From Dehalococcoidia bacterium (GTDB taxonomy: Bacteria > Chloroflexota > Dehalococcoidia > UBA2979), in NCBI GenBank assembly GCA_041690175.1, contig JAWLHV010000006.1, positions 63,914-127,913 on the forward strand: DNA of 64,000 nucleotides, in the 5' to 3' direction. The translations under genes were made by a program, and so were the position numbers. The stretch's first letter is position 1; the number at the start of each line of letters is the position of its first letter. Below the pieces are notes generated by a model. The model was not told the DNA's origin, made no database searches, and was given only the letters and a program-made list of their open reading frames with translations. Positions 52,664-62,675 of this stretch are shown here, one piece after another.

Positions 52664-53434
52664 CTACGCCGAGGGAATGTGCCGGGGGGCGGCGCGCATG
52701 GAGTAGCCCACGCCGTAGACGGTGTGGATCGCGTCTGTGGGATAGCCCGTGGCCCGCAGTTTGCGGCGGAGTCGCGATATGTGCTGGTGCAGGAAGTTGG
52801 ACTCGCCCAGCGACTCGTAGTTCCAGACGCGGCGGCTCAACTCCTCGGCTGGGACGGCGGTACCGGCCCGCTCGATGAGCAGCCGCAGTAGCCCGGTCTC
52901 CGAGCGTGTCAGCGCCGCCTCCTGCCCGTCGTAGCGGGCGAGTCCCAGGCGGACATCCAGCGTGAGGCCGTACGCGCCGGTGATCAGCGAGTCCGTGGCC
53001 TGGTAGTTCGCCCGGCGGAGCAGGGCCGTGACACGCCTGGCCAGTTCCACGGGGTGGAGCGGCTTGGGCAGATAGTCGTCCGCCCCGGCGTCGAACCCGG
53101 CGATGCGCTCCTCCGGCGTCCCGGCCGCGGACACGATGAGCACGGGTACCTCGCTGGTGCGGCGGACTTCCGCGCACAGGTCCAGGCCAGAGCCATCCGG
53201 CAGCCCCACGTCAAGGATCACCAGGTCAAACGCGGCCTCTGCCAGGCGGTGGCGCGCCTCGCGGAGTGAGCGGGCGGTGCTCAGACGGTGGCCGGCGGCG
53301 GTCAGTTCGCTCAGCAGCACGTCGCGTGCGTGCGGCTCGTCCTCCACCAGGAGCAGGTGCGCCGGCCGCGCGGGCGCCGCGCCGCGTTGGACGAGCGCCC
53401 CGGGGGGTGTGTTGCCGGCGGGGGCCTGCGGCAT
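52664..53434 (-). CDS. OmpR/PhoB family response regulator
   Basis: LLVEDE, ILDVGLPDGSG, GADDYLPKP, HISRLRRKL, IHTVYGVGY; start uncertain. Confidence 0.9.
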   Translation of the reverse strand: MPQAPAGNTPPGALVQRGAAPARPAHLLLVEDEPHARDVLLSELTAAGHRLSTARSLREARHRLAEAAFDLVILDVGLPDGSGLDLCAEVRRTSEVPVLIVSAAGTPEERIAGFDAGADDYLPKPLHPVELARRVTALLRRANYQATDSLITGAYGLTLDVRLGLARYDGQEAALTRSETGLLRLLIERAGTAVPAEELSRRVWNYESLGESNFLHQHISRLRRKLRATGYPTDAIHTVYGVGYSMRAAPRHIPSA

Positions 53435-53596
53435 CCTGCGCTCCAGTTCCCAGCCCTCCCATGGTGGTCGTTCGGGCGGGGACGTGGAGGGGCACCGGGG
53501 TTGTTTGACAGGATCTTGTCGGGATTGCATCGGAGCCACCTTCCGGGCAGACTCCGGCACCCCTCGCCCGCCTTTCCTGCGCGGGCCAGGAGCGGA

Positions 53597-53712: not shown

Positions 53713-54462
53713 ATGGCGAAGATCGTCTCGATCCACTCGTTTCGTGGGGGGACCGGTAAGTCCAACACCACGGCGAACCTGGCGGCCCACCTGGCGCTCC
53801 GAGGGCTGCGCGTGGGCGTGGTGGACACCGACATCCAGTCCCCCGGCCTCCACGTGCTGTTCGGCATCAAGGGCGAGGACCTTTCGCACTCCCTGAACGA
53901 CTTCCTATGGGGCCGCGCGGCCATCACGGACGTGGCGCGCGAGGTGCTGCCGGGACGGACTCCCGGCGCGATCTACCTCATCCCTTCCAGCATCCGCACG
54001 GACGAGATCGTCCAGGTGCTGCGGGAGGGCTACGACATGAAGTTGCTGGCCACGGCCTTCCGCCAGTTGAGCGAGGCGCTGAGCCTGGACTTCCTGCTGG
54101 TGGACACTCACCCCGGCCTCAACGAGGAGACGCTCTTCCTGCTGGCGATCTCCAGCGCCGTGGTCATCGTGCTCCGCCCGGACCAGCAGGACTACGAGGG
54201 CACCGGCGTGACCGTGGAGGTCGCGCGCTCCCTGGACGTGCCGCGGCTGATGCTGGTGGTCAACAAGGCGCCCCGGACGCTGCCGCTGGACGCGCTCGGC
54301 GAGCAGATCGCCAGCACCTTCGGCTGCGAGGTAGGGGCCGTGTTGCCCCACAGCGACGAGATGCTGGACTTCGGGAGCCGGGGCGTCTTCGTCCTGGAGC
54401 ACCCTGAGGATCCCGTGAGCGAAGCACTGCGCGGCGTAGCCGAGCGGCTGGCCACCTCCTAG
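53713..54462 (+). CDS. MinD/ParA family ATPase (variant RGGTGKS P-loop)
   Basis: HSFRGGTGKSN, VVDTDIQSPG, LVDTHPG, LVVNK. Confidence 0.88.
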   Translation: MAKIVSIHSFRGGTGKSNTTANLAAHLALRGLRVGVVDTDIQSPGLHVLFGIKGEDLSHSLNDFLWGRAAITDVAREVLPGRTPGAIYLIPSSIRTDEIVQVLREGYDMKLLATAFRQLSEALSLDFLLVDTHPGLNEETLFLLAISSAVVIVLRPDQQDYEGTGVTVEVARSLDVPRLMLVVNKAPRTLPLDALGEQIASTFGCEVGAVLPHSDEMLDFGSRGVFVLEHPEDPVSEALRGVAERLATS

Positions 54463-54498: not shown

Positions 54499-57143
54499 GT
54501 GAGGGAGCCCGAGGCTTCGTCCGGATCAGGCGCAGGCACCGGCGAGGACGTCCCGCCCGCGGGTGCTGTGGCCCGCCTCATCGTCCAGGTTGCCGGGGAG
54601 ACCTCGCCGAGGTCCGTGTGGCTCACCGGGACGGTGGCCCGCGTGGGCCGTGACCCGGAGAACGAGGTCACGGTGGACGTGCCGTACCTCTCCCGGCACG
54701 CGGTCACCATCAGGCGCTTCCCCGGCCACGTGTCACTGGAGCCGGTGGAGGGCGCGCTGACCACCGTGACCTACCGCGGGCGTGTACTCACGCGCCCGGT
54801 AGGGCTCGCGGACTCCGACTACTTCCGGCTGGAGGGCGACGGCCCCGGCGAGGCGGTGAACGTCTTCTATGCCAACGCCGCCCCGGGCGCGGAAGCGCCC
54901 GCGCGCCGGCGCCTGGCCCTGCGGGAGGGCGCCACGGTGCGCATCGGCAGCGCGGCCGGCAGCGACATCGGCGAGGGCAGTCCGCTGCTGGAGGGGGAGC
55001 ACGCGACGCTGAGCCGGGAGGGCGGCGCCACCTGGTTGACGCCCGCCGGGGACGCCACCGTCATGGCCAACGGCAGCATGGCCTTCGGCCGCACCCACCT
55101 GGCGCCCGGCGCCTCCGTCTCCGCGGGCGACGTACGCATCACCGTGGACGAGGACGGCGTGGAGTTCTGGGTGGCGCGCTCCTCGCTGGTGATGGGGGCC
55201 AGGCGCGGACGGGAGATGCCGGAGGAGGTGCTGCTCCGCCTGCCAGGCACCGGCGGCGCGGAGGTGGTGGCCCGTGACCTGACACGCCAGGCGGGCGATC
55301 TCACCATCCTGGACGGCGTCTCGCTGCGCTTCATGGAGCGCGAACTGGTGGCGCTGGTGGGCCTGAGCGGCGCCGGGAAGTCCACGCTGCTGAACGCGCT
55401 CACGGGCTTCCGGCCGGCAGACAGCGGCGAGGTGCTGATCAACGGCCTCAACCTGTACGAGAACCGCGACCACTTCCGCTCGCTGATCGGCTACGTGCCG
55501 CAGCGCGACATCGTCCACCAGAGCCTCACCGTCTTCGAGGCGCTGGACTACGCCGCGCGCCTGCGCCTGCCCCCCGGTACGTCCGAGGCAGACCGCCACG
55601 CGCGCATCCAGGAGGTGCTGGCGGACCTGGGGCTGGAGGAGCGGAGAGACACGCGCATCTCCAACCTCAGCGGCGGCCAGGTGAAGCGCGTCTCGATTGG
55701 CGTGGAGTTGATCTCCCAGCCTCAGTTGATGTTCCTGGACGAGCCCACCTCCGGCCTGGACCCGGCCACGGAGACGGACCTGATGCGGCTGCTCCGCCGC
55801 CTGGCTGACCAGGGCCGCACGATCGTGGTGATCACGCACGCCACCAAGAACGTGATGATCGCCAACAAGGTGATCTTCCTGGTGCGGGGCGGACGCGTGG
55901 CGTGGTTCGGGCCACCGGCGGAGGCGATCGACTACTTCGACCGCCAGCGTAGCGAGGCGGAGCGCGCCGACCGGCCGCTTGAGTTCGATGAGATCTACCG
56001 GCTGCTGGACCAGCCGGAGCGAGGTAGCGCGGCCGACTGGCAAGAGCGCTTCCGGCAGGACGCCGCCGCCCAGCGCTACCTCCCTCGCCCCGTCGAAGGT
56101 GGTACGCCCTCCGCTGCCAGGGCGGAGCGAGTGGAGCCACAGCCGCAGCCGGGCCCACTGCGGCAACTGCTGGTGCTCTCCGGCCGCAACCTGCGCCTGC
56201 TGGGGCGGGACCGCTTCGCGCTGCTGCTGGTGATCGCTGCCGCGCCGCTGCTGGCGTCCCTGGACTTCCTGATCACCAAGCGCGACATGTTCGATGCCGT
56301 CTCCGGCGACCCCGCCCGCATCATCACCAACACCAACACGATGATCGTGAACGCGATGCTGGTGGGCGCGCTGGCGCAGATGCGGGAGATCATCAAGGAC
56401 CGCGACATCTACCGCCGCGAGCGGCTGGTGAGCCTGCGCCTGTTCCCGTACGTGCTCTCCAAGGTGTGGATCGCCGGCCTGCTGGCGCTGTACCAGGCGG
56501 TCTGGTGGGTAGCGATCCGCTACGCCGCCGTGGACATGCCCGGCGGCTGGGACGTGGCCACCGGGTTCTACGTCACCATGTTCCTGGCGACGTTCGCCGG
56601 CATGATGCTGGGCCTGTTCGCGTCCGCGGCGTCGCCCTCGGAAGACGCGGTGGCGCTGATCGTGGCGCTGCTGATCGTGCCGCAGGTGCTGTTCAGCGGC
56701 GCGCACCTGCCGGCGCACGAACTCAGTCCCGTGGTGCGCTCCCAGATGGACATCATGCCCTCGCGCTGGGCGTTCGAGGCGCTGACCACGCTGGGCGGAC
56801 ACGGCACGGACGTGGCCAACGACCGCTGCTGGCTGGACACCACGCCGGAGCAACGCGCCGCCATGACGCCGGAGGAGAAGCAGGCCTGTACATGCCTGGG
56901 CGAGAGCATCTTCGAGTCCTGCGGGTACCCGGGCGTGCAGTCGCAGCGGGCGCTGGTCGCCGCCGGCGGCGCGGGCGCTTCGTCGGCCGTCCTCCTGGCG
57001 GAGGGGCGCCTGGAGGTGGGCTACGAGGGCTACGGCCCCGTGTATGACGTGAACGTGCCGCTCCGCTGGGGCGCACTCGTGGTCATCATCACGGCGCTGG
57101 GCGGCATCATCTACGGCATCCAGCGGCTCCGGGACCGCGTGCG

Positions 57144-57147
<4 letters not shown>
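54499..57147 (+). CDS. FHA-FHA-ABC ATPase-permease fusion transporter (Rv1747-like architecture)
   Basis: FHA VGRDPEN...[29 protein letters not shown]-2 type TM region with [14 protein letters not shown]. Confidence 0.88.
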
Positions 57148-60388
<3,241 letters not shown>

Positions 60389-60392
<4 letters not shown>

Positions 60393-60769
60393 GCGAGGCC
60401 GAGGCCCCCGTGCTGGACCGCACCGTCCTGCGGCGCGTCTTCGAGGAGACCGGCGGCGACCCGGAGTTCCTGGCTGACCTGCTGGCGGAGTACCTGGAGG
60501 ACGGCGCGCGCCTGCTGGAGGAGGTGCGCACCGCCTGGGCCGCGCACGAGCGCGAGCGACTGCAGCGCAATGCTCACACCCTGAAGTCCAGCAGCGCCTC
60601 CCTGGGCGCGCTCCACGTCGCCTCGCTCAGCGCAGGCATCGAGGCGGCGGCGAAGCAGGGCGAGCAGCCCGCGGAAGACACTATCCACGCGCTGGCGGCG
60701 GCGTGGGCGCAGGCCTCGTCCGTCCTGGGCGCGCTGGACGTGGAGAGCCTGCGGCAGGCCGGGACATGA
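60389..60769 (+). CDS. Hpt phosphotransfer protein
   Basis: [13 protein letters not shown] (H-x-LK-x-S-x-x-x-x-GA Hpt motif); overlaps both neighbours by 4 nt. Confidence 0.9.
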
Positions 60770-61509
60770 CGGAGCAGCCCCGCGCCGGGCGCACGGAGGG
60801 GCAGCCGGCGCACGTCCTAGCAGTGGACGACAGTTCCGTGAACCGCCGCCTGCTGGAACGCCTGCTGACCCAGGAGGGCTACCGCGTCACGCTGGCGGAG
60901 GACGGTCCACAGGCGCTGGAGCAGCTGCGCGACCCCTCGCAGCCGGTGGACGTGGTGCTGCTGGACATCATGATGCCGGAGATGGACGGCCGGGACGTGC
61001 TGCGCCACGTGAAGGCGGATCCGGGGCTGCGCCACATCCCCGTGATCGTGCTCTCGGCGGTGGAGGACACGGATACCGTCACCGAGTGCATCGAGGCCGG
61101 CGCGGCTGACTACCTCCACAAGCCGTTCAGCCGCTCGATCCTGCGCGCGCGCCTGGTCGCCAGCCTCGCGGAGAAGCGCCTGCGGGACACCGAGCTGGAG
61201 TACCTGGAGCAGGTGGGCCGCCTCACGGAAGCGGCCAGCGCGCTGGAGGCCGGGCGCTTCGAGCCAGACTCGCTCGCCGGCGTGGCGGCTCGGCAGGACT
61301 CGCTCGGCCAACTGGGCCGGGTGTTCGCGCGCATGGCCACCGAGGTGGTGGAGCGCGAGGAGCGCCTGCGGCGCCAGGTGCAGGAACTGCGCGTGGCCGT
61401 GGACAGTCAGCAGACACGCAAGCAGGCGCAGGAGATCACACAGACCGCGTACTTCCAGAGCCTGCGCGGGCGGGTCGCGGAACTCCGCGATCTGCTGGAG
61501 CCGGACTAG
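60766..61509 (+). CDS. Response regulator: REC, HAMP-like domain and coiled-coil tail, no recognisable output domain
   Basis: VLAVDD, LLDIMMPEMDG, YLHKPF; RQDSLGQLGRVFARM resembles HAMP helix 2. Confidence 0.85.
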   Translation: MTEQPRAGRTEGQPAHVLAVDDSSVNRRLLERLLTQEGYRVTLAEDGPQALEQLRDPSQPVDVVLLDIMMPEMDGRDVLRHVKADPGLRHIPVIVLSAVEDTDTVTECIEAGAADYLHKPFSRSILRARLVASLAEKRLRDTELEYLEQVGRLTEAASALEAGRFEPDSLAGVAARQDSLGQLGRVFARMATEVVEREERLRRQVQELRVAVDSQQTRKQAQEITQTAYFQSLRGRVAELRDLLEPD

Positions 61510-62675
61510 CCCGCTACCGCCTCCGGGGCCTCGTCGTGCTCGGCCGCTGCGCGCGTCATCGCCTGGCGGACAAACGCCTGCACCAGCGACTCGTAGCGGA
61601 TCGGGTCCAGGTTCCACGCCTGCCCGTGTCCGGCATCCGGGAAGCGGTGCAACGCGACCGCACCCGAGCGGGCCTCGACGAAACGCTCGCTCATGGTGAT
61701 CGGCACCTGTCCGTCCGCCTCGCCGTGCAGGATGAGCGCCGGCACATCCGTGGCCGCGAAGGCGGGCCGGGTGTCGTAGTCCCGCCAGCGCAGGCCGAAG
61801 CGCAGCCGGCCCAGTTTCAGGCCCAGCCACGTCACCGGCGCAGGCACGCCGGTGGTGCGCGCCGTCCAGGAGACGGCGGTGTAGAAGTCCAGCAGCGGCG
61901 CGTCCAGCACCAGCGCGGAGACGTGACCCGCGAGGCGTGAGCGGCGCAGGAACCACCCCACGATGGCCGCGCCCATGCTGTGCCCGCTCATGACGATTGT
62001 CTCGGCGCCCTCCGCCAGTGCGAACGCCACCGCAGCCTCCAGGTCCTCCCACTCCGACCGTCCGAAGTGGAAGTACCCGTCCTCCGAGGGCGGCACGCCC
62101 TCGTCGTTGCGGTAGAACGGGATCAGCACGGTGCAGCCGGTGGGGTGGACGGCGTCAGCCACCCGAAGGAGTTCCCTGGGACCGCCGCTCTTGCCGTGTA
62201 CCGCGATCACCCACGTGGTGCCGCCACGGGCGCGCCAGCCGCGGTAGGCGCCCAGCGGCCCCGGGAACGAGACGTCCTCCATGCCCTCGGGAGTGGCTGA
62301 TGGTGGGTATGCGATGCCGTCCAGCGCGCAGGTCTCGCCCACGGCGGGTATCCCGACCAGCGGCTGGAAGCGGTAGCGGGTCTGGCCGTCCTCCAGGCGC
62401 ACGCCTTCCGTGACGCGCCCGTACCACCCTTCGCCGCCCAGGCCCTCGCCGCCCAGCCCCCATGTGCCGGTGAGTCGCGGCGCGCGTTTGCCCAGTTGGA
62501 GGAGCGTGACGCTGTCCGAGGTGACCTCCACCACCCTGGTCTGCGGGCGGGGGCGGGAGTGCGCACCCAGGAGCGCCTCGCGGCGGATGCGCGTGGAGGC
62601 GATCCACGAGGCGACGGTCCAGGCGATCAGTACGCATGCGGCCAGCGCGGCCGCGATGAGCGCGAGCGGTTCCAA
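61506..62675 (-). CDS. Membrane-anchored alpha/beta hydrolase
   Basis: N-terminal TM, VHG oxyanion segment, GHSMG nucleophile elbow, LHGEAD, GHG; TTG start. Confidence 0.82.
   Translation of the reverse strand: MEPLALIAAALAACVLIAWTVASWIASTRIRREALLGAHSRPRPQTRVVEVTSDSVTLLQLGKRAPRLTGTWGLGGEGLGGEGWYGRVTEGVRLEDGQTRYRFQPLVGIPAVGETCALDGIAYPPSATPEGMEDVSFPGPLGAYRGWRARGGTTWVIAVHGKSGGPRELLRVADAVHPTGCTVLIPFYRNDEGVPPSEDGYFHFGRSEWEDLEAAVAFALAEGAETIVMSGHSMGAAIVGWFLRRSRLAGHVSALVLDAPLLDFYTAVSWTARTTGVPAPVTWLGLKLGRLRFGLRWRDYDTRPAFAATDVPALILHGEADGQVPITMSERFVEARSGAVALHRFPDAGHGQAWNLDPIRYESLVQAFVRQAMTRAAAEHDEAPEAVAG

Follow-up and report, generated by a model that had tools for sequence, protein, structure and literature searches.

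ATPases of the MinD and ParA type carry a deviant Walker A motif and act as dimers, the cycle of which is governed by a segment of a dedicated partner that is encoded in the vicinity and inherited together with the ATPase. Examples include MinD with MinE or MinC, ParA with ParB, and FleN (FlhG) with FleQ. The MinE and ParB activators employ a short, flexible, basic peptide, usually N-terminal, that contains a catalytic Lys or Arg, and they are genetically linked to, and co-inherited with, the cognate ATPase. Another shared output is found in the methyl-accepting chemotaxis proteins (MCPs), in which varied sensors (TM-HAMP, PAS, soluble; TM, transmembrane) possess one terminal signalling hairpin, the tip of which converges, with CheA/CheW, on one ATP-using protein. 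Here, we describe a response regulator of 247 residues encoded by the last gene (60766-61509, + strand) of a five-gene operon in a 64,000-nucleotide stretch of the genome of a Dehalococcoidia bacterium (contig JAWLHV010000006.1, positions 63,914 to 127,913; referred to as the window). The best explanation of its output is a C-terminal helical module of about 50 residues, the tail, which is neither an enzyme nor a DNA-binding domain. Comparative genomics suggests that the hairpin at the end of this tail probably contacts the RGG-type MinD-like ATPase encoded by the first gene of the same operon.

The regulator works like the partner-controlled MinD/ParA systems and like the chemoreceptor tip, and it is a member of neither. 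It shares with the former a deviant-Walker-A ATPase and a partner segment encoded close by and co-inherited with it; the contact itself we infer from the genes. Genetic linkage and co-inheritance, as seen for MinE and ParB, are also seen for the tail, but a short, flexible, basic peptide is not, and the invariant Arg of the tail is probably paired with D213. The partner is instead a C-terminal hairpin on a coiled coil, in contrast to a short basic N-terminal peptide or the contact helix of MinE, and is borne by sensors of many kinds. The ATPase also differs in having Arg for the signature Lys and in scoring below the cut-offs of both MinD models. With respect to the MCP tip, the hairpin is about 50 residues long rather than about 300, has neither methylation sites nor a match to MCPsignal, and is proposed to engage a MinD-type ATPase instead of a histidine kinase. 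We classify the protein as a response regulator whose output is a protein contact and which is paired with a MinD-type ATPase dependent on its partner.

Sequence and predicted structure of the tail

The tail, delimited by alignments, a conservation table and AlphaFold2 models, extends from R197 to R241 (REERLRRQVQELRVAVDSQQTRKQAQEITQTAYFQSLRGRVAELR; 61354-61488, + strand) and includes a signalling helix and a predicted helical hairpin. It forms a discrete module of about 50 residues with the pattern RE..L.....L.IEID.......V.EIT.TDYF..L...A..LR. and, over 102 unique tails, the consensus M-A-x-x-V-x-x-R-E-x-x-L-R-x-x-V-x-x-L-x-I-E-I-D-x-x-K-R-x-x-Q-V-x-E-I-T-x-T-D-Y-F-x-x-L-x-x-x-A-x-x-L-R. In this set, conservation reaches 95% or more at R197, E198, L201, L208, D213, I224, L233, and R241. 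The tail as a whole is conserved far beyond chance expectation and to the same degree as the receiver. T225 is conserved in 73% of tails and replaced by Val, Ala or Lys in 27%, with Val present throughout one whole subtype.

The AlphaFold2 model of the regulator, built with 119 homologues, has a predicted local distance difference test score (pLDDT) of 91.6 and helices at residues 123-161, 167-174, 179-225, and 228-244. Helix α5 of the receiver extends into helix 123-161, while helix 179-225 spans 47 residues and ends in a kink at TQT, after which the final helix is amphipathic. A second run with the C-terminal half by itself gave an identical result. D213 and R241 are each located 14 residues away from the turn and may therefore form a salt bridge that clamps the helical hairpin.

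Database searches placed the tail in no described family. Pfam contains none for it (four tails, searched at E≤10, matched nothing apart from HalX, and that weakly) and detects no further output domain in the regulator. The PDB sequence search with the C-terminal half returned chance matches only (IFT70; E value 0.04), and Foldseek found no significant match for the same half. The one weak family match was to HalX (PF08663), which in haloarchaea follows a receiver as the only, short helical domain; the arrangement is alike, but the sequences do not match significantly (12.6 bits, E value 0.19; cut-off 23.2). The best structural match to the whole C-terminal half, likewise non-significant, was the fusion of the Af1503 HAMP to the EnvZ DHp domain (PDB: 3zrw; template modelling (TM) score 0.61), in which a HAMP is also followed by a helical hairpin. 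In contrast to DHp domains, the tail has no H-box His, no match to HisKA (PF00512) even at E≤10, no conserved His at any position, and no catalytic ATP-binding domain. Full-text literature searches retrieved no description of the tail, of the RGGTGKS motif or of REC-HAMP regulators, and the paper describing the signalling helix mentions neither MinD nor ParA.

In size and rhythm, the alternating L-R-I-E-I-D pattern and the two helices after it recall a ribbon-helix-helix (RHH) motif, so that the tail might be a small dimeric DNA-binding motif and the protein a transcription factor. This is extremely improbable, as LRVAVD lies inside the continuous helix 179-225 (pLDDT >90) in both independent AlphaFold2 runs, and no RHH or helix-turn-helix family match and no structural match was obtained. 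The all-helical models, in which the N-terminal β-strand of an RHH fold is missing, led us to reject a DNA-binding tail of this type.

Distribution of the tail among signalling proteins

A profile of the last 60 or so residues was searched against 1.84 billion representative sequences. Clustered at 50% identity, the matches with E≤1e-3 make up 2332 clusters, of which 1313 have E≤1e-10. Among the best 150, all except three have a match that stops no more than about 35 residues before the C-terminus. The regulator scores 87 bits with this profile and is the sole tail copy in its genome. It has more than 1470 homologues, the top 120 of which have 230-276 residues (except for one outlier of 362) and share 52-85% identity over about 90% of the length, tail included. 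The closest relatives appear to be encoded by Chloroflexota metagenome-assembled genomes.

The tail group spans Chloroflexota, Cyanobacteria, Myxococcota, and Actinomycetota, and its members differ widely in the domains that precede the tail. In addition to the REC-HAMP phospho-receivers, carriers include membrane proteins (TM-HAMP, PrsW-TM with a cyclic nucleotide (cNMP)-binding domain, PrsW-TM with GAF, and ECF-S-like TM with HAMP), HAMP-GAF proteins, cNMP-binding proteins, CHASE2 receptors of heterocyst-type cyanobacteria, HisKA-REC-GAF proteins of Myxococcota, and, in one cyanobacterium, HisKA-REC-HAMP-like-PAS and TM-PAS-PAS proteins. At least eight input types are represented: periplasmic-domain TM-HAMP (Cache-like or other), CHASE2, GAF, PAS, cNMP-binding, ECF-S-like, PrsW-like, and phospho-receivers. 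A search with the tail of a carrier of 526 residues returned only its own Myxococcota subfamily, a restriction caused by the word filter.

In five HisKA-REC-GAF proteins of 860-872 residues (locus L120, 8390-11002, and loci L128, L133, L152, and L183), the tail occupies an internal position ahead of an α/β hydrolase domain. The MinD-like gene is not within ±10 kb of these loci, yet it is found elsewhere in the same genomes. An α/β hydrolase of 389 residues (61506-62675, - strand; Abhydrolase_1/Hydrolase_4/Peptidase_S9) is also encoded in the window, convergent with the regulator and with its stop overlapping that of the regulator by 4 nucleotides (nt). Kinship between this protein and the tail-fused hydrolase of L120 was considered and rejected, the similarity being generic (28% identity over 83 residues; E value 7e-4). 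A natural fusion between tail and ATPase was likewise discarded, as the sole candidate, an open frame of 632 residues at L187, is a GC-rich read-through.

Linkage of the tail to the RGG-type ATPase

The occurrence of the tail was compared with that of the RGG-MinD clade in 401 evenly sampled genomes of the Chloroflexota, the phylum to which the window belongs, and in 201 cyanobacterial genomes. The tail is present in 46 Chloroflexota genomes (two of these by weak partial matches) and the ATPase in 44; both are present in 43, the tail only in three, the ATPase only in one, and neither in 354 (Fisher p 5e-53). In the single clear tail-only genome the tail is 621 bp off a contig end, while the single ATPase-only genome is 80% complete. 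The corresponding cyanobacterial totals are 31 genomes with the tail and 35 with the ATPase, of which 30 contain both, one the tail only, and five the ATPase only, leaving 165 with neither (p 2e-29). Canonical MinD (TIGR01968), which served as a control, does not display such a pattern: 112 of the 401 genomes encode it, yet among the 44 with a true tail no more than 32 do. The preliminary description had suggested that the tail itself is the effector and that this idea would suffer if the tail were poorly conserved or found independently of MinD. Instead, it is strongly conserved and co-occurs nearly one-to-one with the RGG-type ATPase in two phyla; it behaves as an output module tied specifically to this ATPase.

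The linkage extends to gene neighbourhoods. An ATPase gene lies within ±10 kb in 38 of 72 tail loci (44 genomes), where less than one would be expected by chance, and 17 of 89 tail genes are followed by the ATPase gene on the same strand at a distance of no more than 150 bp. The ATPase is found in 13 of 16 distinct REC-HAMP-tail loci, and four of six metagenomic contexts of close regulator homologues contain the ATPase together with the Hpt (histidine phosphotransfer) protein and the hybrid kinase.

Tail subtypes, moreover, match ATPase paralog types among the 19 tail genes with an ATPase gene directly downstream. All 11 tails of the 'EF.EE[IL]..T[DE]FY' subtype, carried mostly by cNMP-binding proteins of 245-324 residues, are directly upstream of a lower-scoring ATPase paralog (305-336 bits), and the seven 'V...IT.T.YF' tails adjoin a higher-scoring one (342-439 bits). 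The remaining tail, at L151, also pairs with the lower-scoring paralog (318 bits) but keeps Val at the subtype position.

These observations bear on the alternative that the tail is a structural cap which keeps the REC-HAMP coiled coil dimeric, the protein itself being a phosphate sink or signalling by its receiver surface in the manner of CheY. The most invariant residues fit a self-contained hairpin, i.e., a hydrophobic stripe plus D213 and R241 14 residues from the turn, and the predicted fold resembles a HAMP-DHp stalk. However, a mere cap would not be expected to retain such sequence identity behind eight unrelated sensor types, to follow a single ATPase clade through different phyla, or to have subtypes that match ATPase paralogs. 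We consider the cap improbable.

The genes next to tail and ATPase offer other candidates for the partner. In operons of the response regulator type, the gene after the ATPase always encodes a membrane transporter-like protein: an FHA-ABC transporter in the window and at L081, and a permease resembling Aa_trans/Trp_Tyr_perm in other loci. According to the preliminary description, Thr residues of the tail could become FHA ligands upon phosphorylation, and in the window an FHA-ABC gene is indeed in the same operon. Binding of phosphorylated T225 and T227 by the FHA domains of the ABC transporter is nevertheless very unlikely. The FHA-ABC gene accompanies the tail in two of 86 loci, the window and L081, and FHA is missing from all other tail loci examined; the operon is without a Ser/Thr kinase; the incomplete conservation of T225 noted above is a further point against it; and both Thr residues are found in a helical turn of a confident model.

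It is more plausible, though still unlikely, that the tail acts in the same pathway by contacting another common component, either other tails through mixed hairpin bundles or a small protein of about 120 residues and its permease-fused copies, with the ATPase operating upstream or downstream. Genomes often hold two to four tail genes, which are frequently clustered at one locus, and the small protein is encoded in 37 loci of 35 genomes. On the other side, the source genome contains tail and ATPase with a single tail gene and no detectable copy of the small protein, near one-to-one co-occurrence with the tail belongs to the ATPase, and it is the ATPase gene that sits directly after tail genes. 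The small protein has no Pfam match and recurs beside both tail and ATPase genes (L138, 10139-10543, and 36 other loci). A related segment appears to be fused at the N-terminus of the permease-like proteins and of a cNMP-patatin protein (L083, 6792-9086; L085, 7585-9678; L081, 4123-6378).

Several points weigh against direct contact between the hairpin and the ATPase. Shared ancestry inflates the phyletic correlation, though 27-28 genera and two phyla are spanned. An ATPase gene within ±10 kb is lacking in 34 of the 72 tail loci, which would require action in trans by many of the tail proteins. The small unannotated protein (37 loci), a Cys-rich mini-protein, and tandem cyclases are conserved neighbours which could be the direct partner. 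D213 and R241, the polar residues with the highest conservation, may serve the structure, through an intra-hairpin salt bridge, rather than an interface. Finally, the tail encoded in the window is off-consensus at E22A, V32A, and D39A (tail numbering). Contact with the RGG-type ATPase is still the reading that we favour. The idea of a MinE- or ParB-like activating peptide or docking helix, put forward from the window alone, has thus fared unevenly: a docking helix accords with comparative genomics, whereas the tail is a C-terminal helical hairpin and not a short basic peptide.

Two further gene arrangements were observed at tail loci. In one Chloroflexota family, a recurrent cluster (L125, L135, L146, L154, L168, L171, L178, L180, and L184) includes a cNMP-binding-tail protein with a second MinD-like paralog encoded immediately after it, and a HAMP-GAF-tail protein, as well as a tandem class III cyclase (528 residues), a Cys-rich mini-protein of 73 residues, and an ECF sigma factor. 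The arrangement suggests that cyclic nucleotides feed into the same ATPase system. In a cyanobacterium with a genome of about 6.7 Mb (L191, 3300-8880), a CHASE2-tail protein and the MinD-like ATPase are encoded next to a pair of DUF928 genes, which commonly accompany CHASE2 sensors.

Characteristics of the RGG-type ATPase

The first gene of the operon (53713-54462, + strand) encodes an ATPase of the MinD/ParA type, with Pfam matches to ParA, AAA_31, and CbiA, and is the proposed partner of the tail. In its deviant Walker A motif, HSFRGGTGKSN, the signature Lys is replaced by Arg; R11, K16, D38, D40, and D131 are invariant in the alignment of the clade. The protein is within the broader ParA/CbiA superfamily (PF10609; 64.9 bits against a cut-off of 27.1) but fails both MinD equivalogs, scoring 45.8 against 212.9 for the bacterial model (TIGR01968) and 83.5 against 201.75 for the archaeal one (TIGR01969). 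The nearest solved structure is that of archaeal MinD (PDB: 1hyq), at only 60 bits. Searched against the source genome, the clade profile gives 455.7 bits for this protein and 55 for the next ParA-like protein, so that it is the sole member of the clade there. Canonical bacterial MinD (TIGR01968) is absent from the same genome, in which the RGG-type protein is the only close relative of MinD. The clade as a whole comprises at least 7998 clusters at 90% identity, which bear generic names throughout.

Receiver domain and HAMP-like unit

The receiver domain of the regulator (residues 17-130; 60814-61155, + strand) has the phospho-acceptor Asp67 and scores 104.7 bits against a Pfam cut-off of 30.2 (PF00072), and all 119 homologues match the same family. 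The regulator has the full set of active-site residues (D21/D22, D67, S97, and K119-P120), and these are conserved among the homologues, D22, D67, and P120 being invariant and K119 conserved in at least 90%. With the full AlphaFold2 model, Foldseek matched receiver domains alone, including PleD and CheY.

The receiver is followed by a HAMP-like unit (residues 150-194; 61213-61347, + strand), which misses the Pfam cut-off for HAMP (PF00672; 22.1 against 25 bits). The HAMP profile is reached at E≤0.01 by only 17 of 119 family members. Residues 150-241, however, share 54% identity (E value 3e-27) with the membrane-anchored HAMP and tail of a receptor with a periplasmic domain (L163), whose HAMP passes Pfam at 36.5 bits. 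The motif of the second HAMP helix, D-x-[LI]-G-x-L-x-x-x-F-x-x-M, is present as D178-S-LGQLGRVFARM. HAMP domains consist of two amphipathic helices with a connector of 14-17 residues between them, and the AlphaFold2 model agrees with this: the first helix of the unit ends at residue 161 and the second starts at 179, with a short helix inside the connector. The first-ranked Foldseek matches of the C-terminal half were the Af1503 HAMP, a HAMP-DHp fusion, and the Aer2 poly-HAMP, all non-significant (E values 1.8-2.5); the Af1503 HAMP was matched with TMt 0.75-0.78 and a root-mean-square deviation of 1.4-2.0 Å at an E value above 1. The usual position of HAMP is directly after a transmembrane helix, whereas this unit follows a cytoplasmic receiver in a protein devoid of transmembrane segments. 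Because of the second-helix motif, the identity to a HAMP that passes Pfam, and the top, though non-significant, Foldseek ranks, we favour a true HAMP, and refer to it as a cytoplasmic HAMP-like unit. An intact receiver, a HAMP-like unit without transmembrane anchor, and a tail with no other output had been read from the window beforehand; Pfam and AlphaFold2 bear out this architecture, with the HAMP below threshold.

The REC-HAMP-like unit is also found with other outputs, namely a class III cyclase-AAA-TPR protein (L001, 9938-13189) and a polytopic membrane domain (L007, 394-2262). The REC-HAMP-like part of L001 is shared up to 'LEQLHFDIEE'. The unit is thus a portable input stalk, and since the tail-less relatives carry other outputs, the tail occupies exactly the position of an output domain.

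A similar stalk, which transmits phosphorylation, is known from the Rec-GGDEF enzymes DgcR, WspR, and PleD, in which, as here and in L001, α5 runs into a dimeric helical stalk; the receiver and linker are homologous, as indicated by NCBIfam matches to PleD/DgcR. The stalk of the regulator differs in ending in the tail module, without a catalytic domain.

Organisation of the operon

The five genes of the operon are co-directional, and the last four overlap successively by 4 nt. Downstream of the ATPase gene are those for the FHA-ABC transporter (54499-57147, + strand), in which Pfam identifies FHA, ABC ATPase, and ABC-2 permease domains in a single protein, and for a GAF hybrid histidine kinase (57144-60392, + strand) with the Pfam domain order GAF-HisKA-HATPase-REC-REC, the gene of which overlaps each of its neighbours by 4 nt. 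The next gene (60389-60769, + strand) encodes the Hpt protein (Pfam Hpt, 50.3 bits), and the Hpt motif is present. The start of the regulator gene overlaps the Hpt stop by 4 nt, and its reading frame is intact from the ATG at 60766 to the stop at 61509, exactly as first delimited. No minC, minE, or parB is present. An OmpR-type response regulator (52664-53560, - strand) is divergent from the promoter region of the operon. The source genome (3.03 Mb, 92.8% complete) contains exactly one tail gene and one RGG-MinD gene, both in this operon.

Proposed mechanism

In the proposed pathway, a His-Asp-His-Asp phosphorelay would lead from the GAF hybrid kinase via the Hpt protein to Asp67 of the terminal regulator, where phosphorylation would alter the α4-β5-α5 face of the receiver. 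As α5 is predicted to begin a single long helix that leads into a dimeric HAMP-like bundle and a signalling helix, the change could be passed along the stalk. In Rec-coiled-coil-GGDEF enzymes such as DgcR, which the regulator resembles, the stalk shifts register upon phosphorylation. The signalling helix would end in the hairpin (L.IEID...EIT.TDYF..L...A..LR), probably clamped by D213 and R241, and in the dimer two hairpins would form a four-helix cap. This cap may be the shared transmitter of many otherwise unrelated sensors.

The cap would most likely dock onto the dimer of the RGG-type MinD-like ATPase, and either set its ATP-dependent cycle of dimerization and hydrolysis or recruit it. Control might run in either direction, with the sensor regulating the ATPase or the ATPase positioning the sensors. 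The ATPase would then act on the membrane transporter encoded with it, i.e., FHA-ABC in this operon and an amino-acid-permease-like protein in the sister operons; the transporter-like protein is the likeliest downstream target.

Significance for prokaryotic signalling

We further propose, tentatively and with rather more doubt than assurance, that the tail and the RGG-type ATPase constitute a branch of signal transduction in prokaryotes that has so far gone unrecognised. In this branch, sensors belonging to eight or more input types, without an enzymatic transmitter, would converge via a docking hairpin on a dedicated ATPase switch which controls transporters or other effectors, and the regulator would be an adaptor plugging a classical phosphorelay into this switch. 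Output-less response regulators and HAMP receptors, which are usually set aside as "CheY-like" or "hypothetical", gain a shared candidate output, while a very large, generically annotated clade of MinD/ParA proteins may find its role as a switch in signalling. The proposed partners are both small and soluble, and their genes lie side by side. Should the contact prove real, the hairpin would be a new transmitter module beside the kinase, the MCP tip, GGDEF, and the cyclase, and its docking would represent a new mode of regulation of MinD-type ATPases.

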